Shown here piece after piece: positions 12,830 to 48,273 of a DNA stretch of 53,966 bases. The translations under genes and the position numbers were made by a program. How positions within the stretch are numbered: position 1 is the first letter of the stretch; the number at the start of each line of letters is the position of its first letter. The notes beneath the pieces are model-generated. The model worked only from the letters and a program-made list of their open reading frames with translations. It had not been told where the DNA came from and made no database searches. This stretch comes from Candidatus Oleincola secundus (GTDB lineage: Bacteria > Atribacterota > Phoenicimicrobiia > Phoenicimicrobiales > Stramentimicrobiaceae), in contig JAGYLS010000003.1 in the NCBI GenBank assembly GCA_018400815.1, positions 1 to 53,966 on the forward strand. Reading direction: 5' to 3'.

Positions 12830-13080
12830 AATTTATTTAACCATTACCACCTTCTTAGAAGGTGGTAATGGTTAAATAAATTGTTTTATCACAAAAAAGA
12901 ATAAGAAAAGCTATCTGACAATTTTCAGCTAAACTCTTAAGTTGGAAGTTGGTTAACTTAGAAATATTTATAGTTAAATAAAATTAAAAGAAAAAAGAGC
13001 ATAACAAAAAATTAAACAAGAAAAACTCAAACATCTTTTAGATGTTCTTAAAGCCACCTGCTTTGCTGGTGCGATGTTTG
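12830..13080 (-). repeat. Dispersed hairpin/palindrome element, copy A (full length, reverse orientation)
   Basis: Perfect 53-bp palindrome 12830-12882, conserved core, twin hairpins at 13029-13075. Confidence 0.9.
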
Positions 13081-13084
13081 CTAA

Positions 13085-15838
13085 TCAATCACTTATTGAA
13101 TGATTTTTCTTATAAGTGAGTTTTAATTTTTTTAATATCTCCACATAAGGAACCGCAGTAAAAGAAAGAAATATAATTACCAGCCATTGATAATAACTGA
13201 GTGGTACTACCTTGAATACTAGTTGCAAATAAGGAATAAGCATCACTGCCAACTGCAAAATACCTGAAACCAAAATGGCCAGAATCAAATATCGATTACT
13301 AAAAATACCCAATTTGGCCAATGAATAACGCTCAGAACGAGAGTTCAAAGATTGCCACAATTGGGTGAAACTTAAGGTACCAAAAGCCATAGTTTCCCCC
13401 ACTTCTAAGGAATACTGGCTATATCCGTAATAAAAGGCAATTAAAGTAATAATACCAATGAATATTCCCTGGGAAAAAATATTAAATCCCATCTTACCCG
13501 AAAAAATTCCTTCATCCGGATCCCGGGGAGGGTGTTTCATCAGATCCCTCTCGGCCGGATCAAGGCCTAATGCTAAAGCAGGAAAACCGTCGGTAACTAG
13601 ATTAACCCAGAGAATTTGAATAGGAAGCAACGGGCGAGGTAAACCAATTAAAATGGCAATAAAAATGGTAATTATTTCTCCTAAATTACATGATAGTAGA
13701 TATCGGATAAATTTCCGGATATTCTGGTAGATTTTTCTTCCTTCCTCCACAGCAGATACAATAGAAGAAAAATTATCATCGGTTAAAATCATATCAGCTG
13801 CTTCCTTGGAAACATCCGTACCGGTAATACCCATGGCCACGCCAATATCAGATTCCTTTAATGCAGGTGCATCATTAACGCCATCACCGGTCATTGCTAC
13901 CACCTGTTTGTTTTTCTGCAAAGCCTTGACAATCCTTTGCTTATGTCTTGGTGAAACACGTGCAAAAATAGTAGTTTCCAATACAATTTTCTCTAATTCC
14001 GGCTGAGACATATTCTCCAGTTCTGTACCGGTAATAATACGGTCACCGGAATGATAAATATCCAATTGGTCAGCAATTGCCTGGGCAGTCAGTGAATAGT
14101 CTCCGGTAATCATAACAGGACGTATGCCCGCTTTTCGACAGGTCTGAACTGCTTGAAGGGCTTCTTTTCTGGGAGGGTCTATCATAGCCATCAGCCCTAA
14201 AAAAATTAACTGACTTTCTGTTTTATCAATATCAAATTTTTGGTCATACTCTAATTGTTTTTTTTCAGATGGAGTTATCTCTCGATAGGCAATTGCCAAA
14301 ACTCTGAGTGCTGCTGAGGCAAGTTTTTTATTTTGTTCTAAAATAAGTTCTTTTATTGATTTAGATAATTGAGTAGATTCCCCGTTGTTCATATAATTTT
14401 TACATCTTTCAATGATCTGATCTGGCGCACCTTTTACAAAAAGTAATGTACCTCCATCCGTTGTTTGATGGATAGTTGACATCCTTTTCCGGTCTGAATC
14501 AAAAGGTAGTTCTTTTAAGCGGGGATATTTGTTTTCTAATCCCTCTTTTTGGTAACCTGCTTTGGCTGCCGTAACAATGAGCGCTCCTTCGGTTGGATCA
14601 CCTATAATATCCCAGTTTTGATTATCTTCATTTTGCCTTAAAGAAGAATTATTGCAAAGAGCTGCAGCCTTTAGCAAAAGGGACAAACTTTGCTCTTCAC
14701 TGGGTTGAATAAATTTACCATTCTCTCTAAATTGACCAAAAGGCTCATATCCAACACCCTCTACATCTATTTCCCTATTTGCCAATGCCAGCTTTTGGAC
14801 AGTCATCTGATTCTGGGTGAGGGTTCCGGTCTTATCTGAACATATTACAGTAGTTGCACCCAATGTCTCTACAGCCGGCAAACGCCTGATAATTGCATTT
14901 TTTTTAATCATTTGCTGTACACCCAGGGCTAGGACTATTGTTACCACCGCTGGTAATCCTTCCGGAACTGCGGCAACAGCAAGAGAAATACCGGTCATAA
15001 ACATATCAAAGAAATCAATCCCCCTCAAGCAACCTAATAAAATTACAATGGCTATTACGAATAGGATAATAACTCCCAGGTTCTTACCAACCTGGTTTAA
15101 CTTTTTCTGCAGGGGGGTCAATTCCTGCTTCTGTTCCTGAAGCATGCCGGCAATCTGTCCCATTTCGGTATCCATGCCGGTAGCAACAACTAAGCCCTTG
15201 CCTCTTCCGGCAATAACCGAAGTGCTCATATAGGCCATATTGGTACGGTCTCCAAGAGAGGTATCTTTTGCCTCAACTGCACTTGTATTTTTCTCTACTG
15301 CTTCGGATTCGCCGGTTAAAACGGATTCCTGGATGCGCATATCAGTCACTTTAACCAAGCGAAGATCTGCCGGAATTCTATCACCAGACTCTAAAATAAC
15401 TATATCTCCCGGAACCAATTGCTGTGATTGAATCTTTTTTTGCTGACCATCTCTAATAACCACTGTTTCAGGAACAGTCATTTTTTTTAAGGCATCCAGT
15501 GACTTTTCTGCCTTAAATTCCTGCAAAACACTCATGACCGCATTTAATATTACAATGATTACAATTACAATGGCATCAGTAGCTTCCCCCAATAATAGAG
15601 AAACGACTGCAGAGACCAATAAAATAAGAATTAGAACATCTTTAAACTGGTCTATCAGCATATTCCATATCGTTCTTTTCTTGCCCTCTTTTAACTGGTT
15701 AGGTCCGATTTTTTCCAGACGGTTATTGACTTCAGATTCACTCAGTCCTTTGCTTAAAGAAGTATTTAGCTCTGATTCTATTTCTTTTATCGACTTTTGA
15801 TAATATTTTCTTAAACTGTTCTTTTCTGTTCCAGTCAT
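13085..15838 (-). CDS. Calcium-translocating P-type ATPase (type IIA)
   Basis: TGES, VPEGL, DKTGT, KGAP, MITGD, GDGVND, NLVTDG. Confidence 0.93.
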   Translation of the reverse strand: MTGTEKNSLRKYYQKSIKEIESELNTSLSKGLSESEVNNRLEKIGPNQLKEGKKRTIWNMLIDQFKDVLILILLVSAVVSLLLGEATDAIVIVIIVILNAVMSVLQEFKAEKSLDALKKMTVPETVVIRDGQQKKIQSQQLVPGDIVILESGDRIPADLRLVKVTDMRIQESVLTGESEAVEKNTSAVEAKDTSLGDRTNMAYMSTSVIAGRGKGLVVATGMDTEMGQIAGMLQEQKQELTPLQKKLNQVGKNLGVIILFVIAIVILLGCLRGIDFFDMFMTGISLAVAAVPEGLPAVVTIVLALGVQQMIKKNAIIRRLPAVETLGATTVICSDKTGTLTQNQMTVQKLALANREIDVEGVGYEPFGQFRENGKFIQPSEEQSLSLLLKAAALCNNSSLRQNEDNQNWDIIGDPTEGALIVTAAKAGYQKEGLENKYPRLKELPFDSDRKRMSTIHQTTDGGTLLFVKGAPDQIIERCKNYMNNGESTQLSKSIKELILEQNKKLASAALRVLAIAYREITPSEKKQLEYDQKFDIDKTESQLIFLGLMAMIDPPRKEALQAVQTCRKAGIRPVMITGDYSLTAQAIADQLDIYHSGDRIITGTELENMSQPELEKIVLETTIFARVSPRHKQRIVKALQKNKQVVAMTGDGVNDAPALKESDIGVAMGITGTDVSKEAADMILTDDNFSSIVSAVEEGRKIYQNIRKFIRYLLSCNLGEIITIFIAILIGLPRPLLPIQILWVNLVTDGFPALALGLDPAERDLMKHPPRDPDEGIFSGKMGFNIFSQGIFIGIITLIAFYYGYSQYSLEVGETMAFGTLSFTQLWQSLNSRSERYSLAKLGIFSNRYLILAILVSGILQLAVMLIPYLQLVFKVVPLSYYQWLVIIFLSFTAVPYVEILKKLKLTYKKNHSISD

Positions 15839-15957
15839 TTTTGCTTCTACACCTCAGAAATAATTTATATCATCTAATTCTCACTATATTATATATTTTT
15901 AATTTCCTATTTATTATTAATCAAGATGATTGAAAATATAATTATATCTATTATATT

Positions 15958-16425
15958 CTAGATTTCTTTAAAATAATCCTGAAGGTAATCAATATTTCGT
16001 TTTATTTCAGTCAAACTTTGACGAAAATTTTTACCCTTATCTGGTAATTTGGACAAATAATGGGCATAGACTTCCAATGATTCATAGCGATGATAAAGAT
16101 AAAATTCCTTGCCCTTTTCTGAAAGAGTAACCAAAACTTTCCTTCTATCCTGCTGAGCTCGACGTCTTTTTATATAACCACGCTGGACTAAACGGTCAAC
16201 GATACTTGTCATGGTAGTAGGAGGAACATGGAATATCCGGGAAAGTTTGCTCATTGAAGCAAAGGATTCTTTCCCTAAAAATTCGATGAGATAATGTTCG
16301 GTAATACTAAAGGAAACTTTTCTAGTAGAAAGATGACTGCTATAGACATGTTCCCATAACATTTCAGTCAGTTGCAGAAATAAATCATTAATTTCGGCCG
16401 CAATCTTTTTTTCTTCTCTTCCCAT
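15958..16425 (-). CDS. MarR family transcriptional regulator
   Basis: TMTSIVDRLVQRGYIKR...DRRKVLVTLSEKG winged helix. Confidence 0.9.
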   Translation of the reverse strand: MGREEKKIAAEINDLFLQLTEMLWEHVYSSHLSTRKVSFSITEHYLIEFLGKESFASMSKLSRIFHVPPTTMTSIVDRLVQRGYIKRRRAQQDRRKVLVTLSEKGKEFYLYHRYESLEVYAHYLSKLPDKGKNFRQSLTEIKRNIDYLQDYFKEI

Positions 16426-16508
16426 GTATTTTTACCCAATTTACAAACTTTTTATTGCGAATATCGTACTTTAAATCATACGAATTACTATCCGAAAAGT
16501 CAAATTGA

Positions 16509-17897
16509 TTATTTTGTTTTCCAATTGTCAAATATTTTTTCCGCTTCTATTATAGCCTTTTTTACCCTATGCATAGAAGTACCGCCGTAGGATTTCTTGG
16601 AGTTTACAACATCTTCTGGGCTGAGTATATTTAGAACATCTTTTTCAAAAAGGTGCTGGAAATTCTGGAATTCTTTTAGTCTTAACTGCTCTATATTCTT
16701 TTTTTGTTCAATACAATATAGTACAATTTCTCCTACTACCTGATGGGCTTCACGAAAAGCCAAACCTTTTTTAACTAAATAATCAGCAACTTCGGTAGCA
16801 TTGGAAAAATCTCCCTTCAGACTATTTCTCATATTCTCTGATTTAACCTGCAAAGTTCTAACCATTCCACTCATTATGATAAGTGAATTTTTTAAGACCT
16901 CTACTGAATCAAACAGAGGCTCCTTGTCTTCCTGCATATCATGGTTATAAGCAAGAGGTAAGGCTTTCATGACAGTAAGTAAAGCCATAAGATGACCGTA
17001 CACTCTGCCTGATTTGCCTCTGATTAATTCTGCTGCATCAGGGTTCTTCTTTTGGGGCATAATACTGCTACCGGTACAAAAAGAATCATCCAATTCAATA
17101 AAATCAAACTCTTGGGAAGACCATAAAATTATTTCCTCGCTTAAACGGCTAAGATGCAACATTGTCATCGCTGAATCCGACAAAAATTCAATAATAAAGT
17201 CCCTGTCACTTACCGCATCAAGGCTATTTTGTGAAATCTCACTGAAATTAAGCTCTTTTGCCAGATATTGCCGGTCTATCGGGTAAGATGTCCCGGCCAT
17301 AGCAGCAGAACCTAACGGAAGAATATCCACCCTTTTATACAAATCTTCTAATCTTTCCCTATCCCGGTTAAATTTAAAAAAATAAGCCAGCAGGTAATGA
17401 GAAAATAGGATAGGTTGGGCATGCTGCAAATGGGTATAACCAGGCATAATAATTCCCAGATGATTCCACGCTATAAATAGCAGGGCTTCCTGCAAAGCAT
17501 CCAAATTTTGTTGAATTGTTCTAATTTCATCCCTTAAATACATTCTCTCATCAAGGGCAACCTGATCATTACGGCTTCGGGCAGTATGAAGTTTTCCGGC
17601 AATTTCACCTATCTTTTCTCTCAATATATTTTCAACCCAGGTATGAATATCTTCTGCCTGGTTATCGACAATTAAACTTCCGTCTTTAATTTGGCTCAAA
17701 ATATCCTTCAATCCTTTTATGATTTTATCAGCCTCAATCCTGGTAATGATTTTACATTTCCCCAGCATTTTGGCATGAGCAATACTGCCCAGGATATCAT
17801 ATTTGACCAGCTTTTTATCAAAATAGATTGAAGAAACAAAAGCCTGCATTGTTTTATCTATCTCTTTTCTGAATCTGCCGCCCCATAGTTTTTCCAT
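16509..17897 (-). CDS. argH: Argininosuccinate lyase
   Basis: True start MEKLWGGRF at 17897; LHTARSRNDQ, PGYTHLQ, GSSIMPQKKNPD. Confidence 0.97.
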   Translation of the reverse strand: MEKLWGGRFRKEIDKTMQAFVSSIYFDKKLVKYDILGSIAHAKMLGKCKIITRIEADKIIKGLKDILSQIKDGSLIVDNQAEDIHTWVENILREKIGEIAGKLHTARSRNDQVALDERMYLRDEIRTIQQNLDALQEALLFIAWNHLGIIMPGYTHLQHAQPILFSHYLLAYFFKFNRDRERLEDLYKRVDILPLGSAAMAGTSYPIDRQYLAKELNFSEISQNSLDAVSDRDFIIEFLSDSAMTMLHLSRLSEEIILWSSQEFDFIELDDSFCTGSSIMPQKKNPDAAELIRGKSGRVYGHLMALLTVMKALPLAYNHDMQEDKEPLFDSVEVLKNSLIIMSGMVRTLQVKSENMRNSLKGDFSNATEVADYLVKKGLAFREAHQVVGEIVLYCIEQKKNIEQLRLKEFQNFQHLFEKDVLNILSPEDVVNSKKSYGGTSMHRVKKAIIEAEKIFDNWKTK

Positions 17898-17898
17898 A

Positions 17899-19113
17899 TT
17901 AATCCTCTTGTTTATTTTGACTATTGACAGAGGCATAAACTTTGCTCGGTAATCCCCAGAGTTGAATAAAACCTTTGGCAAAATCCTGATTAAAGGTATC
18001 ACCTTCATCATACGTTGCCAGGTTAAAATCGTAAAGTGAATTTTTAGATTTTCTTCCGATAACAATACATTGTCCCTTGATTAGCTTAATTTTTACTGTT
18101 CCGTTTATTTTTTCTTTGATAACGCCAACGAATCCATCCAATGCTTCCTTTAGAGCTGAGAACCATAAGCCATTATAAGTCAGCTCTGCATATTTCTGAG
18201 AAATAATTTGCTTGAAATGAGCTAAATCTCCAGGTAAAACCAGACTTTCCAATGCACCGTAAGCCTTCAATAAGATAGTTGCTCCAGGACACTCATAAAT
18301 CTCTCTTGACTTGATACCAACCAACCTGTTTTCAACCATATCTACGCGTCCTATCCCGTTTTCTCCTCCCATTTTATTCAGCTTGGAGATAAGAGTCGAT
18401 AGGGAAATATTTTCTCCATCCACACTTAAAGGGACACCTTTTTCGAAATAAATTTCCAAATAAGTCGGTTTATTGGGAGCATCCTCTGGTTTTATTGTCC
18501 ATTTATATGCTTCTTCCGGTGGTTCTACCCAGGGATTTTCCAGAACTCCACACTCACATGACCTACCCCATAAGTTCTGGTCAACACTATAAGGATTGTC
18601 AACATCTACCGGAACTGGAATATTATATTTTTTTGCATATTCAATTTCCTCTTCCCGGGTAAATCCCCACTCCCTTGCCGGAGCAACAACCTGCAGGTTT
18701 GGATTCAAAGCAGCGGTTGATACTTCAAACCTTACCTGGTCATTGCCTTTGCCGGTACAGCCATGGGCAATTGCCTGTGCCTGTTCCTTTTTTGCAAAAT
18801 CAACTAATATTTTGGAAATCAAAGGTCTGGAATAAGCAGTCGCTAAGGGATAATGTTGTTCATAAACAGCTCCTGCCTGCAATCCTTTTAAAGCATATTC
18901 TCTGGCAAACTCTTCTTTGGCATCCACCACATATGATTTGCTTGCACCAACTTTCAAAGCTTTCTCTTTTACAAATTCCAAGTCACTTTCCTGTCCCACA
19001 TCAACTGCTACGGTTACTATTTCCTCACAGTAATTTTCCTTTAACCATTTGATGGCAATTGAAGTATCCAAACCACCTGAATAAGCCAGTATAATCTTCT
19101 TTAGTTTTTTCAT
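17899..19113 (-). CDS. argG: Argininosuccinate synthase
   Basis: [35 protein letters not shown]. Confidence 0.98.
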
Positions 19114-19185
19114 TACAAAACATCTCCTTAAATTATTTTCAATTTTAAAATATTATTCATTAATCATGCTATAAATTGGCAAATA

Positions 19186-20388
19186 TTATTTTATTTCCTT
19201 GAATATCTTATCCAAGGCATTAACAAGATAATCAATTTCTTTCTCTTGAATAATCAGTGGTGGTAAGAAACGCAACACATTTCCAGCAGTACAGTTGATT
19301 AATATTCCTTCATCCAGCATTTTTTTTACTACTACCAGACCGTCTTTTTCTAATTCTAAACCCACCATTAATCCTATTACCCGTATTTCTTTGATTAAAC
19401 CAGGATAATTTGTCTTTAGCAGTTCTAAATTTTTCTGAAAATATTTACTCTTCTTCTGGCATTCTGCCAACAAGCCGTCCTCTTCTAACACTTCCAGGAA
19501 AGCCAAAGCAGCAGCACAGGCAACCGGATTTCCTCCGAAAGTAGTTCCATGGTCTCCGGGTTTATAGGCAGAGGCAATCTTTTCTTTGGCAATCAATGCC
19601 CCTAAAGGCAAACCACCACCTAAAGGTTTTGCCAGAGTCAACATGTCAGGTTCAATATTATAATTTTGATAGGCAAACATCTTTCCGGTTCGTCCCAGTC
19701 CACACTGTATCTCATCAAAAATTAATAATATACCTTTACTATCACAAAATTCTCTTAATCCTTCCATAAATTCTACTGTAGCAATATTGATTCCACCTTC
19801 TCCCTGAACCGGTTCCACCAGCACAGCAGCAACATTTTCATCATAAGCATCCTTAATAGAATCTAAATCATTAAAAATTGCCTGTTTAAAGGCTGGTAAA
19901 AGAGAAAGGTAATCCTTTTGATATTTATATTTACCAGTGGCAGCCAGTGTAGCAATTGTTCTGCCATGAAAAGAATCTTTCATATAAATAATTTTGAACT
20001 TTTCTTTACCTTGTTCCTTAAAGTATTTAACCGCTAATTTAATAGCTGCTTCATTTGCCTCTGCCCCACTGTTGCCGAAAAACACCCTGTCTCCGCAGGA
20101 ATTATTCACCAGCTCTCTGGCCAGAAGAATCTGAGGTGCATTATAAAAAAGGTTGGAACAATGAATCAATTTCTCTGATTGTTTATGGATAGCTCCCACA
20201 ATCCTGGGATGGCAATAACCTAAACTATTGACCGCAATGCCTCCGATAAAATCATAGTACATATTTCCTTCTATATCCCATACTTTTGTTCCCTCACCCC
20301 TGTCCAGTACCATCTCCGGCTGCTTATAAGTTTGAATTAAATATTTACCCTCCTCTTCAATTAATTCTTTGGTATTTTTAATATTCAT
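19186..20388 (-). CDS. argD: Acetylornithine aminotransferase
   Basis: NSGAEANE, SFHGRT, EPVQGEGG, DEIQCGLGRTG, HGTTFGGNP; arg operon context. Confidence 0.92.
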   Translation of the reverse strand: MNIKNTKELIEEEGKYLIQTYKQPEMVLDRGEGTKVWDIEGNMYYDFIGGIAVNSLGYCHPRIVGAIHKQSEKLIHCSNLFYNAPQILLARELVNNSCGDRVFFGNSGAEANEAAIKLAVKYFKEQGKEKFKIIYMKDSFHGRTIATLAATGKYKYQKDYLSLLPAFKQAIFNDLDSIKDAYDENVAAVLVEPVQGEGGINIATVEFMEGLREFCDSKGILLIFDEIQCGLGRTGKMFAYQNYNIEPDMLTLAKPLGGGLPLGALIAKEKIASAYKPGDHGTTFGGNPVACAAALAFLEVLEEDGLLAECQKKSKYFQKNLELLKTNYPGLIKEIRVIGLMVGLELEKDGLVVVKKMLDEGILINCTAGNVLRFLPPLIIQEKEIDYLVNALDKIFKEIK

Positions 20389-20437
20389 TCTTTTCCTCCC
20401 ACAATATTATATTTTCAAAATCTCTTTTATCTGATTT

Positions 20438-21325: not shown

Positions 21326-21344
21326 TTTTTACCTTCCAATAAGT

Positions 21345-21506
21345 AAATAACGCACCCGCATAGCAGGTGGCTTTAAGAATCCTCTAAAAGGGGCTTAACT
21401 ATTTATTAGCCATTTTTTTTCTATTCTTTTCTCTTCAAATCTCTTTAGGACTTCAGGTAAAAATATTTCAGTTAGTATATTTTTATGGTAAAACAATTTT
21501 ATTTAA
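21345..21506 (+). repeat. Dispersed element, copy B (internally shortened; only the TTTATTTAA stub of the palindrome remains)
   Basis: AAATAACGCACCCGCATAGCAGGTGGCTTTAAGAATCCTCTAAAAGGGG...GGACTTCAGGTAAAAA...TTTTATGGTAAAACAATTTTATTTAA. Confidence 0.85.
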
Positions 21507-22827: not shown

Positions 22828-22895
22828 AACAGAAATAATCAGAAGACTAAATGTCCCTGAAATCCTTTCAAAATATTTTTATAATTTTTTACAAT

Positions 22896-23058
22896 AAATA
22901 TCGCACCCGCATAGCGGGTGTCTTTAAGAACCTCTAAAAGAGGTTTAACTTTTTATTAGATAGTTTTTGCTCTGCTCTTTTCTCTTGATCTCTTGGCTAT
23001 CTTTTAAAAGAGCTCTTTCATGCTATTTTTCGTGTATTTAGGATTTAAGGTAAAAATA
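22896..23058 (+). repeat. Dispersed element, copy C
   Basis: AAATATCGCACCCGCATAGCGGGTGTCTTTAAGAACCTCTAAAAGAGGTTTAACTTTT; core-like GGATTTAAGGTAAAAATA at 23041-23058 (right boundary uncertain). Confidence 0.85.
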
Positions 23059-25012: not shown

Positions 25013-25054
25013 TTTTGACTCCTTTTATATTTTAATAAAATCCATATATCCATT

Positions 25055-25261
25055 AAATACCGCACCTGCAAGGCGGATGGTTAAACAATTCTTTCCAGGA
25101 TATTCAAGGGGAATACTTCCCCTTGAGAACCCCTGAAATGCTATACTTGATTTTAAAATCTAGCTTCGTATATATTTGGGTCTTATGTGATATTGCCTCT
25201 TTTTAGCACCTTGGGTAAAATATTTCAGGTAGTATATCTATTGTCTTTCTGGTTAAATAAA
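25055..25261 (+). repeat. Dispersed element, copy D (divergent, with an alternative internal hairpin)
   Basis: AAATACCGCACCTGCAAGGCGGATGG head; TTTAGCACCTTGGGTAAAATATTTCAGGTAGTATAT matches the copy B core; GGTTAAATAAA palindrome-arm remnant. Confidence 0.65.
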
Positions 25262-25448: not shown

Positions 25449-28081
25449 TTATTCCTTTAAAACTGCATGTGCTGCAGCTAATCTGGCAATCGGTACCCTG
25501 AAAGGAGAACAGCTTACATAATTCAATCCAGTTCTGTGACAAAATTCAACGGAATTTGGTTCTCCCCCATGTTCTCCGCATATTCCAATCTCTAAATCTG
25601 GATTTGTTTTTCTACCTAATTCTACACCGGTTTGAACTAGTTTTCCAACTCCTTCTGTGTCTAAAACTTCAAAAGGATTTTCTTTTAATATTCCTTCATC
25701 AACATATTTTAGTAAAAACTTTCCTTCTGCATCATCTCGGCTTATACCGAATGTTGTCTGGGTCAAGTCATTGGTTCCAAAGGAGAAGAATTCTGCATAT
25801 TTAGCAATTTCATCAGCAGTTAATGCCGCCCTTGGCAATTCTATCATGGTTCCTACTTTATATTCTAAATCCAGATTTTCTTTGGAAATAATTTCCTCGG
25901 CTAATTTTTTAGTTTTATTGTAAATCGGTTTTAATTCATTGACATGTCCAACCAGAGGAATCATAATTTCAGGTTTTACGTCCACTCCTTGTTTTTTTAA
26001 TTCTACGCTTGCTTCAATAATAGCCTTTACTTGCATCTCATAAATCTCAGGATACAATAATCCTAAACGGCATCCTCTTAAACCAAGCATAGGATTCATT
26101 TCCTGTAACATTCTTATTCTCTCTAATATTTTTTCTTGCTTTTCTAATTCATCCTTATTTTGTGGTTTCTCTAATTTTAGTGTTGTTACCTTTACTAATG
26201 TTTCTTCGAAATTAGGTAAAAATTCATGCAAAGGTGGGTCCAACAAACGAATGATTACAGGAAAACCGTGCATTGCCTTTAATATTCCTACAAAGTCACT
26301 TTTTTGCATAGGCAATAACTTATCCAATTCTTTTTGCCGTGATTCCTTGGTATCAGAAGTGATCATAGCTTGAACAATAGGTAATCGCTCAGGTGCCATA
26401 AACATATGTTCGGTTCTGCATAAACCTATTCCTTCTGCTCCTAAATCTCTTGCTTTTTGAGCGTCTTCCGGGGTATCAGCATTTGCATACACACCCAATT
26501 TTCTAATATCATCAGCCCAGGAAAGTAGTAGAGTAAATTCCTCACTCATCTTTGGCTCAATCATAGGAACTTTTCCTTCAAATACCTTGCCGTTACCCCC
26601 ATCAATCGTGATCTGGTCACCTTTTTTGATTGTTTTCCCTTCGACAGTAAAAGTCTCTTTTTTTGAATTAATCCTAATATCACTACAACCAGCAACACAG
26701 GGCATACCCATTCCTCTTGCTACCACAGCAGCATGACTTGTCATACCACCCCTGCTGGTTAAAGTGCCTTTTGCTGCAACCATCCCATGTATATCATCCG
26801 GCGTTGTTTCTGTTCTTACCAATATGACATCTTCACTATTTTTACCCATTTCTTCAGCTTCATCAGCAGTAAAGACAACTTTACCTGAGGCTGCACCGGG
26901 TGAAGCTGGTAATCCTTTAGCAATAGATTCAATATTGGCTTCAGGATCAATCCTACGATGGAGCAATTGATTTAATTGCATTGGTTCAATTCTGCTAACA
27001 GCAGTTCTCTTATCAATAACACCCTCATTAAACATATCAACTGCAATTTTTAATGCTGCCTGTGCGGTTCGTTTGCCTGTCCTTGTCTGAAGAAGGTAAA
27101 GCTTCCCTTGCTCAATGGTAAATTCAAAATCCTGAACATCTTTGTAATTTATTTCCAATGTTCTCACGATACGTATTAATTCTTCATATGCCTTTGGTAA
27201 ATCCTTCTTAAGGTCATCCAGGGGCTTTGGTGTTCTGATTCCAGCTACAACATCTTCGCCCTGGGCATTTAAAAGATATTCACCATAATTTTCTTTTGCA
27301 CCTGTAGAAGGGTTTCGAGTAAAACCAACCCCTGTTCCGGAATCATCTCCCATATTTCGAAGACCATTTCCTGAACATTAACAGCAGTTCCCAAATCATC
27401 AGGAATCTTATGTATTCGGCGATAGGTAATGGCACGTTTATTGTCCCAGGAGCTAAAAACAGCCTCTATAGCCATATTCAGTTGCTGTTGAGGGTCATCG
27501 GGAAACTTTTTTCCTGTTTCTTTTAAAACTAGACTTTTATACTGTTTAACAAGTTCTTCAGTCCTTCTACATTTATTTCAGCATCAATTTCTACCTTTTG
27601 TTTTTCTTTGATTTTTTCCAGGATTTCTTCAAAAGCTCTCCCTTAATACCCATTACTACATTACCAAACATTTGAATAAATCTGCGATAGCTGTCATAGA
27701 CAAATCTTTCATCATTTGTTTTTTATGTATCGCTTTAATGGTATCTTCGTTTAATCCTAAATTAAGAACAGTATCCATCATTCCTGGCATAGAAATAGCA
27801 GCACCTGAACGTACAGATACCAGCAACGGATTTTCTGGATCCCCTAAAATCTTATTGGCTTTTTCCTCTAATTTTTTCAAGTTTTTATTAACCTGTTCCG
27901 GTAAGCCTTCCGGGAATTTTTTCGATTTTGTATATTCAATGCATGCTTCTGAGGTTATAGTAAACCCCTGAGGTACTGGTATTCCCATTTTAGTCATCTC
28001 GGCTAAATTGGCTCCCTTACCTCCCAACAATCTTTTCATATCCTTATTTCCTTCATCAAAAAAATACACATATTTTTTCAT
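25449..28081 (-). CDS. ppdK: Pyruvate, phosphate dikinase (four apparent single-base deletions in 27355-27725)
   Basis: LLGGKGANLAEM, VSVRSGA, GEDVVAG, GGMTSHAAVVAR, GIGLCRTEHM, SFGTNDL, GICGEHGG across the fragments. Confidence 0.95.
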
Positions 28082-31370: not shown

Positions 31371-31432
31371 TTTATTTACCCATTACCACCTTCTTTGAAG
31401 AAGGTCGCCCGCTTTGCGGGTGCGGTATTTAC
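31371..31432 (-). repeat. Dispersed element, copy E (minimal ends-only form)
   Basis: TTTATTTACCCATTACCACCTTCT (palindrome arm) fused directly to GCCCGCTTTGCGGGTGCGGTATTTAC (GC hairpin end). Confidence 0.85.
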
Positions 31433-31434
31433 TG

Positions 31435-32208: not shown

Positions 32209-32268
32209 AAGCTCCTATTGTTATAACATTAAAATATGGTATTATATTTCTTTTATGCTCTAGTTATT

Positions 32269-32524
32269 AAATATCGCACCCGCATAGCGGGTGGCTTTAA
32301 GGATTTCTAAAAGAGGTTTAGGTTTTTCTTAGACAATTTTTGTCACACTCTTTTTCTTCTTTCGATGTTTTATTTATATTTTAACAATATTTCTAAGCAA
32401 AACAAATATCTATTTTGAGCTTCAGGTGAAAAATTGTCATCTAGCTTATCTTAATATTTTTATGGAAAAACCAGTTTATTTAACCATTACCACCTTCTTA
32501 GAAGGTGGTAATGGTTAAATAAAC
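32269..32524 (+). repeat. Dispersed element, copy F (full length)
   Basis: Twin-hairpin head, core CTTCAGGTGAAAAATTGTCATCTAGCTTATCTTAAT, perfect 51-bp palindrome 32474-32524. Confidence 0.92.
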
Positions 32525-36069: not shown

Positions 36070-36088
36070 AATATTATCCCTCCTATTC

Positions 36089-36607: not shown

Positions 36608-36645
36608 TAAAGAATATCTTTAGATTATTATGTATTTATTCATTT

Positions 36646-36695: not shown

Positions 36696-36704
36696 CTTAA
36701 ATTG

Positions 36705-40576: not shown

Positions 40577-41570
40577 CCTTGCTATTTTGCAAAATGTCTT
40601 TTATTATCTCAGTTTGACTATTTTCACTCTCTTCATAAGCGCGTATTATTTCTTTTACCAATCTATGTCTAACAACGTCTTTTTTTTCTAGATAAACAAA
40701 TTCAATACCTTCAATATCCTTTAATATCTTGGAAATCTTGACTAATCCTGAGTTTTTTTTCTGAGGTAAATCAATCTGAGTGATATCTCCCGTTACAATA
40801 ATTTTTGATCCGAAACCGAAACGAGTTAGAAACATTTTCATTTGCCCCAAAGTCGTATTTTGGGCATCATCTAATATAATAAAAGAATTATTTAGTGTTC
40901 TACCTCGCATATAAGCTAAAGGTGCAATTTCAATAATTCCACGATCTAAATAATTCTGAAATTTATCGGTTGGCATCATCTCGTAAATAGCATCATACAA
41001 AGGTCTAAAATATGGATCAATTTTTTCCATAAAATCACCTGGCAAAAATCCGAGACTCTCACCAGCTTCTACAGCAGGTCTTATTAAAATTATTCTATCA
41101 ACTTCTTTCTTCTTCAATGCAGAAATTGCAATAGCAACTGCCAAATAAGTTTTACCGCTTCCAGCTGGCCCAATTACAAATAAAATTTCATTATTATGTA
41201 TTTTTTCTAATATTTTCTTCTGTCCAAATGTTTTTGGCCTTATTATTTTATCTTTTTTAAATACATGAATTGCTTCTTTATACAGTTCATCTAAATGAAA
41301 TGTACTATTTTCTTTAAACATATCAATTTGATACCTGACTTCTGATAGATCAACAGAATAACCTCCGCGTATAATAACCAATAAATCCTCAATAATTTTA
41401 GCTGCCTTATGAACATTATTTTTTTCTCCAGATATTGACAAAGTATTACTATTCCTCGTTGAGATATTTACTGATAATGTCTGGCTAATTAATTTTATTT
41501 TAGTATCAAGGTGACCAAAAAGCTCCCTTAATTCATCTTTATTCTTTATAATAACTGATTCTTCAACCAT
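40557..41570 (-). CDS. phoH: PhoH family ATPase
   Basis: GPAGSGKT, RPAVEAGESLGFLPG, AYMRGRT, TGDITQID, VVRH. Confidence 0.95.
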   Translation of the reverse strand: MVEESVIIKNKDELRELFGHLDTKIKLISQTLSVNISTRNSNTLSISGEKNNVHKAAKIIEDLLVIIRGGYSVDLSEVRYQIDMFKENSTFHLDELYKEAIHVFKKDKIIRPKTFGQKKILEKIHNNEILFVIGPAGSGKTYLAVAIAISALKKKEVDRIILIRPAVEAGESLGFLPGDFMEKIDPYFRPLYDAIYEMMPTDKFQNYLDRGIIEIAPLAYMRGRTLNNSFIILDDAQNTTLGQMKMFLTRFGFGSKIIVTGDITQIDLPQKKNSGLVKISKILKDIEGIEFVYLEKKDVVRHRLVKEIIRAYEESENSQTEIIKDILQNSKGENEKR

Positions 41571-41976
41571 TTTATTTCCTCATTTTATCAACTTAATATA
41601 ATAATTGTTATACTTTAAATGATTTGATATCTTATATTATCAAATCATTCTATCTTTTAAATTTTAAATTATAATTTAATAATACTATTAAGCCAAAACA
41701 TTATAACGAATTTTATTATATTTTGCAAAATATAGGTAAGTCTACACCTATTTTATGTTAGAGAGCAAGTTCTAAGTATCTTTAAGTACCCCAGTAAATT
41801 TTACACTAACATATTAGTATTAAAATACATTAGCATGTTTTACAATTAATTGAAATTACTGATTTATAACTATACAATATGCTTTTTATATATACTTTCT
41901 TCAAATTAGATAACTTCTTCTTTTAATATAATCTTTCTGATTGAATTATTAAGTATTTTTTAAAGATTATTTTCTA

Positions 41977-42020
41977 AAAAAAAGAGAAGACTCAGTTATT
42001 TTAAATTATCTGAGCCTTCT
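41977..42020 (-). terminator. Intrinsic terminator downstream of rpsU
   Basis: Minus strand GAAGGCTCAG...CTGAGTCTTC followed by a T-run. Confidence 0.65.
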
Positions 42021-42130
42021 GGTTTCTTTGTAAAAGGTTATATTTAATCTCGAATATCTTCTAGTATTTTTTGACAATTTGATTAAATAATATCTCCTTT
42101 TGCATCTTCTTTAATTTTTATTTAAGAAAA

Positions 42131-42319
42131 TTAATTCCTCCCTCTCCTTTTCTTTTTTCTTTGGGCTGCTATTAATTTTCTCTTTCTTCTTTCACTTGGT
42201 TTTTCGTAGTATTCATGTCTCTTAATATCAGAGATAATCCCACTCTTTTGACATTCCTTCTTAAAGCGCTTTAACGCATGATCAAATTCTTCATCTTCTC
42301 TTACTCTTATTGTTGCCAT
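42131..42319 (-). CDS. rpsU: 30S ribosomal protein S21
   Basis: MATIRVREDEEFDHALKRFKK...HEYYEKPS; RBS precedes ATG 42319. Confidence 0.96.
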   Translation of the reverse strand: MATIRVREDEEFDHALKRFKKECQKSGIISDIKRHEYYEKPSERRKRKLIAAQRKKKRRGRN

Positions 42320-42603
42320 ACCTCTCACCCCCTTCTCTGCCATGATAAGCCATCAGAAATGACTGGCAAGTTAACCAAGTTATTTAACATTATATATTAT
42401 CACTCAGAAATGTTCAAGGTAACATTGATTAGTATATTATTTTCTTTGATATAAATGATTAAACTAGAATATTATTTAAAGGTGTATGAAAAGAAAGAAC
42501 ACATTTTTGTATATTCCTAGAAAACCATTTTCTTTACTAAATATATTTGTTATGGTAAACTTAAAAAACAAAAAATCTAAAAAAAGGAAGGAGATATAGC
42601 TAA

Positions 42604-43463
42604 TTGATTGAAAAACAAAAAAAATTATCTGTAGTTACCGTTTTTCTTTGTGCCATATTATTATTTTTTATGTCATTCTCTTTACAGGGGATTTCCTTAC
42701 AAGAACAGGATGACAGTGGGGAACCATTAGTTATTATTAATGGTGAAATTATTACCGTAGAAAAGTTTGAACAATTCTGGAATATGATTCCTGATAATTA
42801 TAAGGTCGAGTTAAATAAGGAAGATATATTAGATCAACTCATAACACAAACTTTATTAATCCAAAAAGCGGATGAACTGAATCTACGTGAAGATCCTGAG
42901 ATTGCCTTTCAGGTTAAAAGTGCTGTTGATCAGATATTAATACAAGCTCTCCTTGAAAAGGAGATCATCGAGGAAACCAGATTAAGTGATGAAGATATAG
43001 AATTATATTATGAAGAAAATAAAGAAGATTATTGGCAAGAAGAAGAAATTCATGCACTTAATATTTTAGTGGAAACCGAAGAAGAAGCAGAAGACATAGT
43101 TAAAAACTAGAGGAAGGCGAAGACTTTTCTAAATTGGCCGAAGATGCTTCTATTGCTTCTAGCGCCTCTGAAGGTGGAGACATTGGTTTTATAAGTAAAG
43201 GTACTTTGAGAAGTGAAATAGAAGAACAGTTGTTTATTCTTAATCCCGGAGAAATTAGTGAAATTATACCAATTGAAAATGGTTTCCATATTTTTAAAGT
43301 ATTAGAAAAAAAACCATCAGGTTATTTAGAACTAGAGGAAGTAAAAGAAGAAATTGAGTATCAGTTGCTTCCCCAAAAACAACAAGAAAATTTTGATAAA
43401 TATTTAAAAGAAATCGAAGATAAAGCTATTATCGAAAAAAATGTTGAATTACTCGAAGAATAA
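42604..43463 (+). CDS. PrsA/PpiC-type peptidyl-prolyl isomerase, frameshifted at the A-run near 43103-43107
   Basis: HALNILVETEEEAEDIVK | LEEGEDFSKLA...GGDIGF...GFHIFKV parvulin motifs. Confidence 0.85.
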
Positions 43464-43559
43464 AGAAAATTGAAATATAAATAAAGCAAAAAATTATTAA
43501 ATATAAACCTATATTATGCCTATTAAAGATAGAGAAAGCTTGTTAAATGTACTATTATA

Positions 43560-45731
43560 TTAAGATTCTTTCTCTATCTTTTTTATTGGAGCATATTTTA
43601 ATGACAACCTTTTAATTCCACTTATTTTAAAATAGACTGTGATATAACAATCATTGCCTGCTTCCTTCTTATTGACGATTGTTCCTTCTCCCCAGTCAGG
43701 GTGGTAAATACAATCATTGACTTCGAGATATTTGTCTTCTTGTTTTATATTTTCTTCCCTATTCATAATTAATCCATTAGATAATATTTCTGATTTTTCT
43801 AAATACTTTTTGGGGATTTCACTAAAAAAACGTGAAACTTTATTAAATTTTGTCTTGCCATCCATATTTCTTCGCCAACTATAGGTTAAATATAATTTAT
43901 CTATTGCTCTAGTCATTCCAACGTAACATAATCTTCTTTCTTCTTCCAAATTAGATTGGCTTGTTAAGCTTCTATTGTGAGGGAAAACCCCTTCTTCTAA
44001 TCCTGTTAGAAATACTACCGGGAATTCAAGTCCTTTAGCACAATGTAATGTCATCAAGTTAACCACATCTCCATCTTTTGAAATCTTAAGGCTATCAACA
44101 TCTGAAATAAGGGAAATATAAGTAAGAAATTCATTTAAGTTGCTTTGTGTGTGTAATTTTTCGTATTCTCTAATTGATTGAAGAAAAGCTTTAACATTTT
44201 CAATTTTATTTTCTTTCTTTATTTTGTCATCCTCATCATCCAACATACTATAATAATTTATTCTTGCAACTAAGCTTTCCGATAGGGAAGATATGCTCAT
44301 CTGACCTTTTCTCAAATTCATAAATATTTGAAGATACTTTCTTATCTTATCTTGGTTTTTTGGACTTACTCTATTTCCAGAAGTTTGGAGGTAATCTGGT
44401 AAGATATCCAAAATACTTTTCTTTTCTTTATTTGAAATGTCAGTTAACTTTTCTATTCCCTTTGTTCCTATTCCCATTTTATCCATCTCTAGCCACCTTC
44501 GACAACATTCCTTATCGTAGGGATTATCAATTAATTTTAATAAATAGATTAAATTTTTTATTTCTTTCCTTTCATAAAACCTAATACCACCAATTAATCT
44601 GAAAGGTATGTTTTTTCTAGCAAATACCTCTTCAAAAGATCTTGACTGTGCATTCGTACGGTACAATACGACAAAATGATACCAACTCATTTTTTCATTT
44701 CTCTTTAAATATTCTATTTCTCTTGCAATAAATTCTGCTTCATCGATGGCACTATTGGACTCATAATATTTTATCTTTTCACCGCCCTTTCTGTCGGTCC
44801 ATAACCCCTTCTCTTTCCTATAAGTGTTATTTTTAATAACAAAATAAGCACCCTTAAGTACAATATCAGAAGAACGATAGTTTTGTTCTAATTTAACAAC
44901 CTTGCATTCTGGAAAATCATCTTCAAAATTAATTATATTACTCAATTCTGCACCCCTGAATCTATATATACTTTGATCAGGATCTCCAACTACAAATAGA
45001 TTCTTGCTTTTTTGAGACAATAATTTAATTAATATATACTGAGCATGGTTAATATCTTGATATTCGTCAACTAAAATGTGTTTAAACTTATCTTGGTAAT
45101 GGCAAAGTATTTCGGGGTAATCCTGTAATAATTGGACTGTTTTTAGAATTAGATCACCATAATCTAATGATTGATTTTTAATTATTTCTTCCTGGTATTT
45201 TTTATAAATTTTTGCAACTATTTTATTATAAAAACCGATTGCCTCTTCACTAAATTTATTTTCATCTATTAATTTATTTTTTGCATTTTCGATAATATTG
45301 TATATTGTTTTTGGCCGATACTGTTTAGAGTCTAAATCAAGAATGTTGAGACATTTTCTTATAAGTCTTTGGGTATCGTTTTTATCATAAATATTAAAAC
45401 TTTTATTAAAACCTAAATATTTAATATGTTGATGTAAAATCCTGACACAAATTGCATGGAAAGTACCTATCCAAATACGATACTTCAAAGATTTTTGTTC
45501 ACTATCTATATTGGTTAGCTTTGCAATTCTTTCTTTCATTTCATTAGCTGCTTTATTTGTAAAGGTAACCGCTAAAATGTTTTCTGGTTTTATATTCTTT
45601 TTTTCAATTAAATATATAATATGCTGTATTAAAACACTTGTTTTCCCACTACCAGCACCAGCAATAACTAAAACGGGTCCATCACAGGCTTGAATTGCTT
45701 TTGCCTGTGCTTGGTTGTACTTTTTTAACAT
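43560..45731 (-). CDS. pcrA: ATP-dependent DNA helicase PcrA/UvrD
   Basis: AGAGSGKT, TFTNKAA, VDEYQD, GDPDQSIY, QNYRS, KGLEF, EERRL; Tudor-like C-terminus. Confidence 0.95.
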   Translation of the reverse strand: MLKKYNQAQAKAIQACDGPVLVIAGAGSGKTSVLIQHIIYLIEKKNIKPENILAVTFTNKAANEMKERIAKLTNIDSEQKSLKYRIWIGTFHAICVRILHQHIKYLGFNKSFNIYDKNDTQRLIRKCLNILDLDSKQYRPKTIYNIIENAKNKLIDENKFSEEAIGFYNKIVAKIYKKYQEEIIKNQSLDYGDLILKTVQLLQDYPEILCHYQDKFKHILVDEYQDINHAQYILIKLLSQKSKNLFVVGDPDQSIYRFRGAELSNIINFEDDFPECKVVKLEQNYRSSDIVLKGAYFVIKNNTYRKEKGLWTDRKGGEKIKYYESNSAIDEAEFIAREIEYLKRNEKMSWYHFVVLYRTNAQSRSFEEVFARKNIPFRLIGGIRFYERKEIKNLIYLLKLIDNPYDKECCRRWLEMDKMGIGTKGIEKLTDISNKEKKSILDILPDYLQTSGNRVSPKNQDKIRKYLQIFMNLRKGQMSISSLSESLVARINYYSMLDDEDDKIKKENKIENVKAFLQSIREYEKLHTQSNLNEFLTYISLISDVDSLKISKDGDVVNLMTLHCAKGLEFPVVFLTGLEEGVFPHNRSLTSQSNLEEERRLCYVGMTRAIDKLYLTYSWRRNMDGKTKFNKVSRFFSEIPKKYLEKSEILSNGLIMNREENIKQEDKYLEVNDCIYHPDWGEGTIVNKKEAGNDCYITVYFKISGIKRLSLKYAPIKKIEKES

Positions 45732-45787
45732 CTATTGTTAACCTTTCCTTACTATAATATTAGGCAAATATGTCTTCTCTTATCAAA

Positions 45788-45837
45788 AAGAAATCCAGGG
45801 AAAAAGAAAATAATCTATAATTACCCCTGGATTTCTT
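45788..45837 (-). terminator. Putative terminator after the class I aminotransferase
   Basis: AAGAAATCCAGGG / CCCTGGATTTCTT inverted repeat followed by a T-run on the minus strand. Confidence 0.65.
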
Positions 45838-45873
45838 ATATGTTGATTCTACAAGAATCTATTTGAAATATTT

Positions 45874-47064
45874 TTAATTAAATAATTTCTTTAATCGACT
45901 CATTCCCTCTTCAATTTCCTCTATGGAAGTTGCATAAGACAACCTCAAATATCCTTCAGCCTCAAATGCACTACCAGGTACTACTGCAACCTCTGCCTCA
46001 CTTAGTATATAATTTGCAAGTTGTAGCGAATCTTTTATTTCCTCACCATTATATAAAATTCCAGTTTTGAGAACTTTTGAAATATTAGGGAAAGCATAAA
46101 AAGCGCCCTTGGGCATATCACAGCTAAAACCATTAATCTTATTGAGTTCCTTAACAATAAATTTTCTTCTTTTATCAAATTCATCATGCATTTGTTTAAT
46201 TGACTCTTGGTCTCCTGCTAACGCTTCTACGCTTGCTTTTTGGGCAATTGAATTTGCGTTTGAGGTACAATGACCTTGAAATTTTGACATTCCTGAAATA
46301 ATTTCTTCAGGCCCAGCAGCATAGCCTATTCTCCATCCAGTCATTGCATAAGATTTAGATACCCCATTTATAAGTAGTACTTTTTCCTTGATATTCGAAC
46401 CGAAAGAAGCAATGGAAAAATGTTTTTCATTTTCATACACTAATTTTTCATAAATCTCATCACTTATACAATAAATATCCTTTTCTAATAAAATATCAGC
46501 AATTTTTTGTAATTCTTCTTTATTGTACACAGCACCGGTCGGATTATTGGGTGTATTTATTAAGAGAACCCTTGTCTTATCAGTTATACTGTTTTCCAGT
46601 TGCTTAGCTGATAGTTGAAATTGATTTTCCTGGCTGGTTCTAATAAAAACCGGTTTTGCTTGTGCTAATTTAATTTGTTCAGTATAACTTACCCAACAGG
46701 GTGTAGGTAAAAGAACTTCATCCCCGGGATTACAAAGTGCCATCAGGGCATTGTAAAGACAATGTTTGGCACCATTTGATATAATAATTTGATTAGTATT
46801 ATAGTGTATACCTTGATCTCTACTTAGTTTTTCAATTACTGCTTTTTTCAGTTCTGGAATCCCTGAGGCAGAAGTATAATGGGTAAAACCATCTTTAATT
46901 GCTTTTATTGCCTCTTCTTGGATATTGTTTGGAGTATTAAAGTCTGGCTCTCCGGCACCAAAACTAATTATTTTTTTACCATCAGCTTTCATCTTTAAAA
47001 CCTGGGACGTAATAGCCAGGGTTTGTGAAGCTTGTATATTTTTAACCCTTTCTGATAAAGTCAT
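45874..47064 (-). CDS. Class I/II PLP aminotransferase (aspartate aminotransferase-like)
   Basis: GEPDF, NTPNNPTG, SDEIY, SKSYAMTGWRIG, RLSYA. Confidence 0.92.
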   Translation of the reverse strand: MTLSERVKNIQASQTLAITSQVLKMKADGKKIISFGAGEPDFNTPNNIQEEAIKAIKDGFTHYTSASGIPELKKAVIEKLSRDQGIHYNTNQIIISNGAKHCLYNALMALCNPGDEVLLPTPCWVSYTEQIKLAQAKPVFIRTSQENQFQLSAKQLENSITDKTRVLLINTPNNPTGAVYNKEELQKIADILLEKDIYCISDEIYEKLVYENEKHFSIASFGSNIKEKVLLINGVSKSYAMTGWRIGYAAGPEEIISGMSKFQGHCTSNANSIAQKASVEALAGDQESIKQMHDEFDKRRKFIVKELNKINGFSCDMPKGAFYAFPNISKVLKTGILYNGEEIKDSLQLANYILSEAEVAVVPGSAFEAEGYLRLSYATSIEEIEEGMSRLKKLFN

Positions 47065-47096
47065 TAATTATTTATCTCCTTATTTTTTTCAATATT

Positions 47097-48008
47097 TTAA
47101 GTTACAAAATCCAACCAAGCATTATACTGTTTCTCTTTTCCCTTAAAAACATTAAATAATTTTTCCTGTAATTGCTTGCTAACAGGTCCCCTACTACCTG
47201 AACCGATAGAATGATGGTCAATTTCTCTTATAGGTGTTAATTCTGCAGCAGAACCAGCGAAGAAAGCCTCATCTGCCAGATACAATACATCTCTTGCAAT
47301 AAACTCTTCTTTAATCTTAAAATTCATGTCACTTGCTATTTTTATAACCGTTTTTCGAGTAATTCCCTCTAACACTGAAGTCAAGGGGGGCGTAAACACT
47401 ATGCCATCCTTAACCCAAAATATATTTTCACCAGGACCTTCAGCAACATACCCATTGCTATCCAACAGTATAGCTTCCTCTACACCGGATTCCACAGCTT
47501 CCATGTTGGCAAATATAGAATTTATATAGTTCCCGCATATTTTTGCCTTTGCAGAAGTAGAATTAATATGACTACGTTGCCAAGAAGATATTATTGCTTT
47601 TATCCCTTTAGCCAAAGCCTCTTCTCCAAGATAGGCTCCCCACTCCCATGCGGCAATCATGACTTGTACTGGACAAGTAAAGGGGTTTAATCCTAATTTT
47701 TTAAACCCTCTATAAACCAATGGTCTGATATAACAACTATCTAACTTGTTTACTTTAATAGTTTCTTTTATTGCCTTTGTAATTTCTTCTTTGGTGTAAG
47801 GAATGTCCATTCTCAATATCTTTGCTGAATTAAAAAGTCTGTCGACATGGTCCTTTAATCTAAAGACAGCCGTGCCCTGTTCTGTTTTATAAGCACGAAT
47901 GCCTTCAAAAACACCACTTCCGTAGTGCAAAGCATGGGTCAGAACATGAACCTTTGCATCGTTCCAATTAACTAGCTTTCCATCCATCCATATTTTTTCC
48001 GCTTCCAT
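47097..48008 (-). CDS. ilvE: Branched-chain amino acid aminotransferase
   Basis: LHYGSGVFEGIR, YIRP, AKICGNY, EGPGENIF, LEGITR. Confidence 0.95.
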   Translation of the reverse strand: MEAEKIWMDGKLVNWNDAKVHVLTHALHYGSGVFEGIRAYKTEQGTAVFRLKDHVDRLFNSAKILRMDIPYTKEEITKAIKETIKVNKLDSCYIRPLVYRGFKKLGLNPFTCPVQVMIAAWEWGAYLGEEALAKGIKAIISSWQRSHINSTSAKAKICGNYINSIFANMEAVESGVEEAILLDSNGYVAEGPGENIFWVKDGIVFTPPLTSVLEGITRKTVIKIASDMNFKIKEEFIARDVLYLADEAFFAGSAAELTPIREIDHHSIGSGSRGPVSKQLQEKLFNVFKGKEKQYNAWLDFVT

Positions 48009-48083
48009 ATTAATATCCCTCCTTTAATATTAATTTAAATATATTAAATATATTTAAATTATATAATTTAGCTACACAAAAGT

Positions 48084-48273
48084 AAATATCGCACCTGCAT
48101 AGCGGGTGGCTTTAAGAACCTCTAAAGAGGGTTTAACTTTTTACCACATTTTAGCTCTTTTTTTTTCGATTTTTTATCTAACCTTTAGCTATAATATTTC
48201 TAAGTAATATAACTTCCAACTTTGGACTTCAGGTGAAAAATTGTCATCTAGCTTATCTTAATCTTTTTATGGT
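48084..48273 (+). repeat. Dispersed element, copy G (palindrome end missing)
   Basis: AAATATCGCACCTGCATAGCGGGTGGCTTTAAGAACCTCTAAAGAGGGTTT...CTTCAGGTGAAAAATTGTCATCTAGCTTATCTTAAT (core identical to copy F). Confidence 0.9.

Follow-up and report, generated by a model that had tools for sequence, protein, structure and literature searches.

The window analyzed here, the whole 53,966-nt stretch at positions 1 to 53,966 of contig JAGYLS010000003.1 of Candidatus Oleincola secundus, contains seven related repeats (copies A to G) that occupy gaps between housekeeping genes and are very probably gene-less derivatives of an IS200 element. All seven are present at the coordinates given in the original prediction and are mutually related by blastn, with copies A and F forming the best pair (E 1e-48). 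The features are listed below in coordinates of the whole window, and the strand given is the active (functional) strand of the element.

12832..12836, + strand: target pentamer TTTAT of copy A, the left cleavage site, outside the element (the consensus in 56 of 67 left ends)
12837..13081, + strand: copy A, full length, 245 bp (blastn and end inspection)
12847-12865, + strand: left hairpin of copy A, within a perfect palindrome, AAAA guide lost
about 13030-13044, + strand: second right-end hairpin of copy A
13050-13053, + strand: right guide AAAG of copy A
13054-13072, + strand: right hairpin of copy A
13078-13081, + strand: terminal tetramer TTGC of copy A
21343..21506, - strand: copy B, with a truncated left end and an intact right end (guide AAAG, hairpin)
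21343-21346, - strand: terminal TTAC of copy B
22894..23058, - strand: copy C, left end lost
22894-22897, - strand: right-end terminal TTAT of copy C
25053..25256, - strand: copy D, long-insert subtype, left hairpin deleted, right guide degenerate
25257-25261, - strand: TTTAT preceding copy D
31371-31375, + strand: TTTAT preceding copy E
31376..31432, + strand: copy E, a 57-bp ends-only fusion of the left and right hairpins, ending in TTAC
32267..32518, - strand: copy F, full length, 252 bp
32490-32508, - strand: left hairpin of copy F, in a perfect palindrome, guide lost
32420-32455, - strand: core of copy F
32276-32298, - strand: guide AAAG and right hairpin of copy F
32267-32270, - strand: terminal TTAA of copy F
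32519..32523, - strand: target pentamer TTTAT of copy F
48082..48273, - strand: copy G, which has lost the left end and keeps an intact right end (AAAG, hairpin)
48227-48262, - strand: core of copy G
48082-48085, - strand: terminal TTAC of copy G

End hairpins of the CCACC-N9-GGTGG type are located near both termini, and the termini are not inverted copies of each other. The predicted lack of terminal inverted repeats is therefore borne out, as are the 36-nt core that is identical between copies F (32420) and G (48227), the absence of an open reading frame (ORF) from the seven copies, and the absence of a transposase among the 41 window proteins scanned. The common architecture with a terminal palindrome that had been proposed for the family is complete only in copies A and F; copy E is an ends-only fusion, and the left-end hairpin is missing from copies B, C, D, and G. 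On the active strand, the terminal palindrome forms the left end and hairpins 1 and 2 form the right end, which means that the original description was of the strand opposite to the functional one. Copy D (window about 25090-25200) and copies on contigs C57, C159, C170, and C203 of the same genome form a subfamily with an extra interior of approximately 130 bases that carries its own GC-rich hairpin and may be a nested second repeat.

In the following, G000 denotes the genome of the window (2.02 Mb, 86% complete), G001 a congeneric 2.3-Mb genome, and other G numbers further genomes that were compared. A blastn search of G000 yields 113 merged loci, and 89 hairpin-1 ends are present, which places the total at 89-113 copies and the density at approximately one per 18-23 kb; the predicted spacing of approximately one copy per 8 kb thus holds locally but not genome-wide. 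The reversed genome contains 0 hairpin-1 ends, which indicates that the repeats are not due to chance. Measured to the left terminus, the copies are 57-393 bp long with a mode of about 235-250, and they are strictly intergenic, with 0 of 89 located within ORFs of at least 90 aa. G001 carries 91 copies. The copies in G000 are divergent (median pairwise identity 77%), and subfamilies that are 90-95% identical and alike in interior, length, and diagnostic bases are found at many loci in both congeneric genomes. A count of the right-end pattern in 86 genomes returned 78 matches in G000, 62 in G001, 60 in G013, 46 in G007, 30 in G005, 19 in G002, 12 in G019, and 9 in G011, but 0 or 1 in the remaining 14 genomes of the same family (98-100% complete ones included), 0-4 per sister-family genome, and none in another 34 genomes from the phylum. 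Such patchy counts, from 0 to 78 within one family, favor a lineage-specific expansion over a conserved RNA.

A scan of 41 genomes with PF01797, followed by a hairpin scan of 33 loci, reveals the parent, a tnpA-only IS200 element of approximately 590 bp that has the same ends and resides in sister-family genomes; a Y1 TnpA gene between such ends is what the original prediction had proposed to look for. In G036 (contig C36), an ORF encoding a 147-aa TnpA is located between both ends, on the strand opposite to that of the earlier description. Both ends of the family match the elements in G036, G083, and G084 (blastn E to 1e-17 for the left end and 1e-15 for the right end). The G036-type TnpA scores 149.8 bits against NF033573 (cut-off 55) and 27.9 bits against the RAYT model (cut-off 80), and an alignment of the parent TnpA to solved transposases shows that the HIH motif and the catalytic Tyr are conserved. 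At E<=1e-35, the cognate tnpA is present in 6 of the 86 genomes: the sister family holds four full copies with different flanks in three genomes and three copies that are truncated or decayed, and a single 44% match lies elsewhere. Titled records with a 91-100% identical TnpA are from Atribacterota, the IS200 subfamily as a whole ranges over Bacteroidota, Spirochaetota, and Atribacterota, and the best annotated plasmid matches to the parent TnpA are 53.5% identical and bear generic names. A possible passenger-carrying derivative occurs at L227-L229 (from about 1290), where a second left end comes directly after a parent element, together with a small ORF rich in Cys.

The sister family contains a deletion series that shows a route to the short form: a clear internal deletion derivative of the parent in G085, which is inserted inside the gene of another IS200 (L332; type of G000 contig C133, described below), an ends-only copy in G077, and two identical gene-less copies of approximately 250 bp at different sites in G084, which also carries two intact tnpA genes. 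The identical short copies beside intact tnpA point indirectly to mobilization in trans by TnpA, which is likely. Deletion derivatives of this type, together with the 77% median identity and the loss of one end from many copies, could also be accommodated if every copy were a full-length IS200 insertion that had lost tnpA in place, such that the short form never moved. However, independent deletions could not produce interiors, lengths, and diagnostic bases that are common at 90-95% across loci and both genomes, and in-place loss does not agree with two identical short copies at different sites; it is largely refuted and must be considered very improbable.

A slightly weaker candidate history retains the same elements but assigns their movement to the IS200 resident on contig C133 of G000 (17100-17640, L001). 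Its intact 142-aa TnpA (17183-17611) is the only short Y1 TnpA found in G000, and it adjoins the right end of a copy. This IS200 was rejected as the parent in that it has its own, different end hairpins with a 6-nt TGTAAA centre; moreover, its TnpA and the cognate TnpA share only 39% identity, none of the family's hairpins occur near its relatives in other genomes, and G001 carries its 91 copies yet no intact short Y1 TnpA among five Y1 matches, all of which leaves little room for this enzyme as the mover. Same-family genomes contain another twenty Y1 matches that are short or broken; these were also discarded as parents, and none has these hairpins.

The boundaries of the copies are fixed. 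In G000, 56 of 67 left ends lie directly 3' of TTTAT, and among 204 copies of G000 and G001 the terminal tetramer is TTAC in 101, TTAT in 38, and TTGC in 22, with a T directly after the right end in 188. This +1 T is the element's own first base, and IS608 is described as preferring a +1 base equal to the first base of the element (PMC5934647). The left guide AAAA corresponds to the cut site TTAT and the right guide AAAG to TTAC. According to PMC3201880, each IS608 hairpin carries four guide bases at its 5' foot, which read the cut sites through G1:C2 and G2:C1 pairs with the third base unpaired, and AAAG/TTAC is one of the combinations. Across 160 loci of the transposase subfamily, taken among the matches listed, the cut site predicted from the guide is located at the expected distance in 133 of 141 locatable left ends and 126 of 134 locatable right ends, whereas shuffled guides give means of 65 and 49 (maxima over 2000 shuffles: 83 and 63). 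Given the relatedness among the loci, this excess is not a probability, but it holds when only distinct ends are considered (79 of 85 left and 43 of 51 right, compared with 37 and 16 after shuffling). The targets in the subfamily include TTAT, TTAA, and TTAG, and the right ends include TTAC, TGAC, TGAG, and TCAA. At the level of sequence, these results support a generalization of the IS608 guide rule across this transposase subfamily.

A right boundary one base later (TANT) was also considered. It was dropped because only the TTAC reading allows the guide and cut to covary among the parents (AAAG/TTAC versus AAAC/TTAG); the TTAC boundary additionally fits the right-left junctions and a 252-base skip at copy F. 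Junctions of a right end with a left end, found in L227-L229 and on G000 contig C79, agree with the assigned ends.

Site-by-site comparisons reveal the empty sites in relatives that were suggested as a check of mobility. The comparison with G001 covered 825 kb (overlaps included) of 2.3 Mb, picked around G001 copies and hence biased towards shared sites; even so, 35 of the 57 distinct G001 copies with both flanks placed have no G000 counterpart, and 9 of 39 G000 copies have no G001 counterpart. Empty sites retain 5-7 bases in 13 of the 19 comparisons listed, where 6 are predicted, with exactly 6 in nine, and there is no target duplication. Among the window copies, the site of copy C is empty in G002, G007, and G013 and holds another subtype in G001; that of copy D is empty in G001, G002, G007, and G013; and that of copy E is empty in G002 and G007 and holds a decayed long copy in G001. 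The site of copy A is occupied by another subtype in G001, and no orthologous site could be paired for copy B. At copy F, a contig from the independent sediment run X5 skips exactly the predicted 252 bases, with the cut ambiguous by 1 base. Contigs of three DNA runs join imprecisely across copy A (a 259-base skip with 10 other letters between), and the contig skip at copy E is also imprecise; neither is counted as a clean empty site. A further copy, near 26700 on G000 contig C203, is directly beside a tRNA-like sequence and has a clean empty site in G001.

Shared sites are frequent, at 22 of the 57 G001 copies, although TTTATT occurs 7782 times genome-wide. Four of five full-length orthologous pairs are not nearest relatives, with the partner ranking 16th to 89th of 94 by tree distance, and this mismatch could be produced by gene conversion, by replacement via a tandem, or by hot spots being used again. 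Copy A lies within an inverted repeat of the host (about 12805-12820 / 13085-13105), directly past a P-type ATPase gene, and in G001 the different subtype occupies the same loop at a distance of a few bases, a hint that single-stranded loops may serve as insertion hot spots. The active strand coincides with the G-rich one in 67 of 79 copies (of a draft genome with the origin unmapped), and inserting into the template of the lagging strand is expected for IS200/IS605 elements (PMC5027513).

High copy number, strictly intergenic placement, and the persistence of sites between species are features that REPIN-like repeats spread by a domesticated RAYT protein would also display, and G000 encodes two longer Y1-domain proteins. 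However, none of these ends occurs within 1.5 kb of either gene, the two ends differ and are directional rather than an inverted pair of one REP, and convergent gaps are not enriched (9/78 vs 78/953). The gene that is bounded by these ends is of the IS200 type, with a RAYT score far below the cut-off, so the REP/RAYT analogy drawn in the original prediction is not supported and a RAYT origin is hardly credible. A conserved structured RNA or regulatory element under selection (a terminator or mRNA stabilizer), the other possibility raised there, has in its favor strong hairpins, the co-orientation of 52 of 59 copies with flanking co-directional genes, and many left ends within 100 bases of the upstream stop codon, but it is just as implausible given counts of 0-78 in one family with 0 in some 98-100% complete genomes, sites that are empty in relatives, conserved parts that are precisely those read by TnpA, and no Rfam family at threshold. 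Over the window, Rfam 15 gives nothing relevant at the gathering threshold, and by E-value copy F has only sub-threshold miRNA-type hairpin matches. The copies may nevertheless have secondary effects on transcription.

The shared ends with an intact element, the fixed boundaries (TTTAT / ...TTAC / T), the empty sites without duplication, the guide complementarity, and the strand bias lead us to conclude, with high confidence, that the repeats are gene-less IS200 derivatives of approximately 250 bp (PATEs) that were likely copied to approximately 100 intergenic sites by a Y1 HUH TnpA acting in trans, in agreement with the predicted non-autonomous HUH-mobilized element. By analogy with IS608/ISDra2 biochemistry, TnpA would bind both CCACC-N9-GGTGG hairpins on one single strand, and the TTAT and TTAC cuts would be chosen through pairing with the four-base guides at the hairpins' 5' feet (AAAA on the left, AAAG on the right). 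The strand would then be excised as a circle, which would insert into single-stranded DNA 3' of TTTAT, with the lagging-strand template as the probable site.

Several results weigh against this explanation. The cognate tnpA was found neither in G000 (86% complete), where the best tblastn match is the unrelated IS200 at 39%, nor at E<=1e-35 in 21 same-family genomes, although the large expansions are located there. Multi-copy elements are often left unbinned. The interior of approximately 130 nt has no significant similarity to the parent tnpA (median z -0.5 to 0.7; no nhmmer match), and an origin by deletion is therefore only inferred for the G000 family; the alignment series from the sister family only suggests that the interior is homologous to tnpA. 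No pair among 37 near-full-length G000 copies is more than 95% alike, which indicates that activity here is not very recent, with the caveat that indel errors occur in the assembly. Covariation of guide and cut among the copies themselves is not significant (Fisher p 0.07-1.0), and the right-left junctions are chromosomal only, with no circle or cleavage observed. Additionally, the genes show an equal strand bias (1154/1397) and copies in convergent gaps split 4:4, so that replication and transcription are inseparable as its source.

The left ends appear to record decay after insertion. Among the 89 G000 copies, 34 keep the A-tract guide, 14 have a perfect palindrome, 4 are in another state, 12 have a terminus without a hairpin, and no left end was found in 25. 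The perfect terminal palindrome, which had been regarded as a feature of the family, is thus a minority state and not a defining one, the imperfect A-tract arm being more frequent. An interior-only tree was built; its resolution is poor, with 39 of 65 forks open. The perfect state, present in 18 of 68, requires 16 changes on this tree compared with 16.2 for shuffled labels, and at least six are forced by well-supported branches, which indicates that it arises copy by copy and not as a spreading subfamily. The likely cause is the correction of quasi-palindromes by template switching, a process described in PMC7202029; in the outer arms, five paired changes are observed where about one is expected, a small count that weakly supports it. 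A perfect palindrome erases the AAAA guide, and such copies are predicted to be immobile. The left guide is kept in 0 of the 7 window copies, so all seven would now be immobile in this reading, whereas about a third of the G000 copies still have it. Decay would thus include correction of the imperfect left palindrome, with removal of the left guide, as well as loss of the left hairpin between short repeats and deletion of the core; the ends-only and hairpin-less forms resemble the repeat-mediated deletions described for PATEs (PMC3119063).

One copy has been affected differently. At L327 (contig C192 of G000, about 328-2190, - strand), a group II intron of approximately 1.86 kb with a 473-aa ORF of the reverse transcriptase type (Rfam RF00029, RF02001, RF01998) interrupts a PATE copy at a point 7 bases 3' of its left hairpin, and the 3' ends of introns lie at the matching place in two parent elements (L239, L241). 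Group IIC introns are reported to target stem-loops (PMC10190682), and the position of the L327 intron would fit such targeting.

The frequent shared sites and the decay of the left end can be brought together in a more speculative model, which we consider possible but doubtful: a self-limiting, REPIN-like resident population of PATEs that is run by a visiting IS200 transposase, in which sites persist, occupants are swapped, and each copy carries an off-switch. Swapping might take the form of gene conversion, or a new copy might insert at the cut site of an existing one, which would then be lost. The off-switch would be the outer quasi-palindrome, which is absent from the parent and whose perfection by template switching would delete the left guide.

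The class to which these elements are assigned and its mechanism are already published (PMC3119063). The family itself is unnamed in the searches run, and no paper on this Atribacterota repeat family was found, with ISfinder and most subscription journals outside the search; it is the family, and not the class, to which the description as an undescribed element can apply. PATEs, as described for Haloquadratum walsbyi (PMC3119063) and for a PATE-like copy in Halanaerobium hydrogeniformans (PMC7290912), have near-terminal palindromes in common with IS200/IS605 elements and no terminal inverted repeats. They resemble the window family further in that there is no target duplication, the copies are heterogeneous and too short for a transposase, insertions are strain-specific, and repeat-mediated core deletion gives ends-only forms. 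H. walsbyi carries well over 100 per genome, and PMC3119063 describes no clear intact cognate tnpA in the host, which is the same puzzle as here. In contrast to those PATEs, the window family is bacterial, its parent is tnpA-only rather than of the IS605/IS1341 type with tnpB, its left end has acquired a long outer palindrome, which forms pairs with the target pentamer and has frequently been corrected to the perfect form, and one copy was hit by a group II intron, whereas haloarchaeal PATEs are described as hit by SMR-A repeats.

IS608 and ISDra2 (PMC3201880, PMC5934647, PMC5027513) share with the family the subterminal hairpins, four-base guides at the 5' foot, T-x-A-y cut sites, a right cut 9-10 bases past the hairpin, a +1 base equal to the first base, and strand bias. 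They differ from it in that here no tnpA or tnpB is located within the element and the target is TTTAT. In IS608, as described in these sources, AAAG/TTAC is found at the left rather than the right end, and the left cut is 19 bases from the hairpin, compared with 14 in the parent. MITEs are distinguished by terminal inverted repeats and target duplication, both of which are lacking here. REP/REPIN-RAYT systems are linked to the HUH superfamily and combine high copy number and intergenic location with long residence and turnover, all of which resemble the present family. Unlike in those systems, one left and one right end enclose the cognate gene, which is an ordinary mobile tnpA of the IS200 type, the ends are asymmetric, and no RAYT association was found by the hairpin scan of Y1 loci or the RAYT model.

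Elsewhere in the window, ppdK (25449-28081) is split into pieces, and all or most runs show extra single bases at 27357, 27556, 27630, and 27718, so the breaks are probably assembly errors. The split of nadE into two ORFs (10417-12178) and the truncation of purB at 245 aa (48845-49582) are possibly errors of the same kind. Two matches to the glycine riboswitch aptamer are located at 53186-53419 on the + strand, with guaA, on the - strand, as the nearest gene.

Because the class and mechanism are published, the surprise is modest; the puzzles that remain are the helper gene missing from the assemblies of the expanded family and the swapping of occupants at shared sites. The results provide base-exact ends for an IS200 subfamily across Bacteroidota, Spirochaetota, and Atribacterota and natural covariation evidence for the IS608 guide rule, which is useful for retargeting HUH transposases, and the parent subfamily could be read as a natural catalog of guide/target pairs reprogrammed on a single hairpin scaffold. 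For the organism itself, the finding accounts for approximately 1% of the genome and for approximately 100 hairpins between genes that might otherwise be taken for RNAs or terminators.

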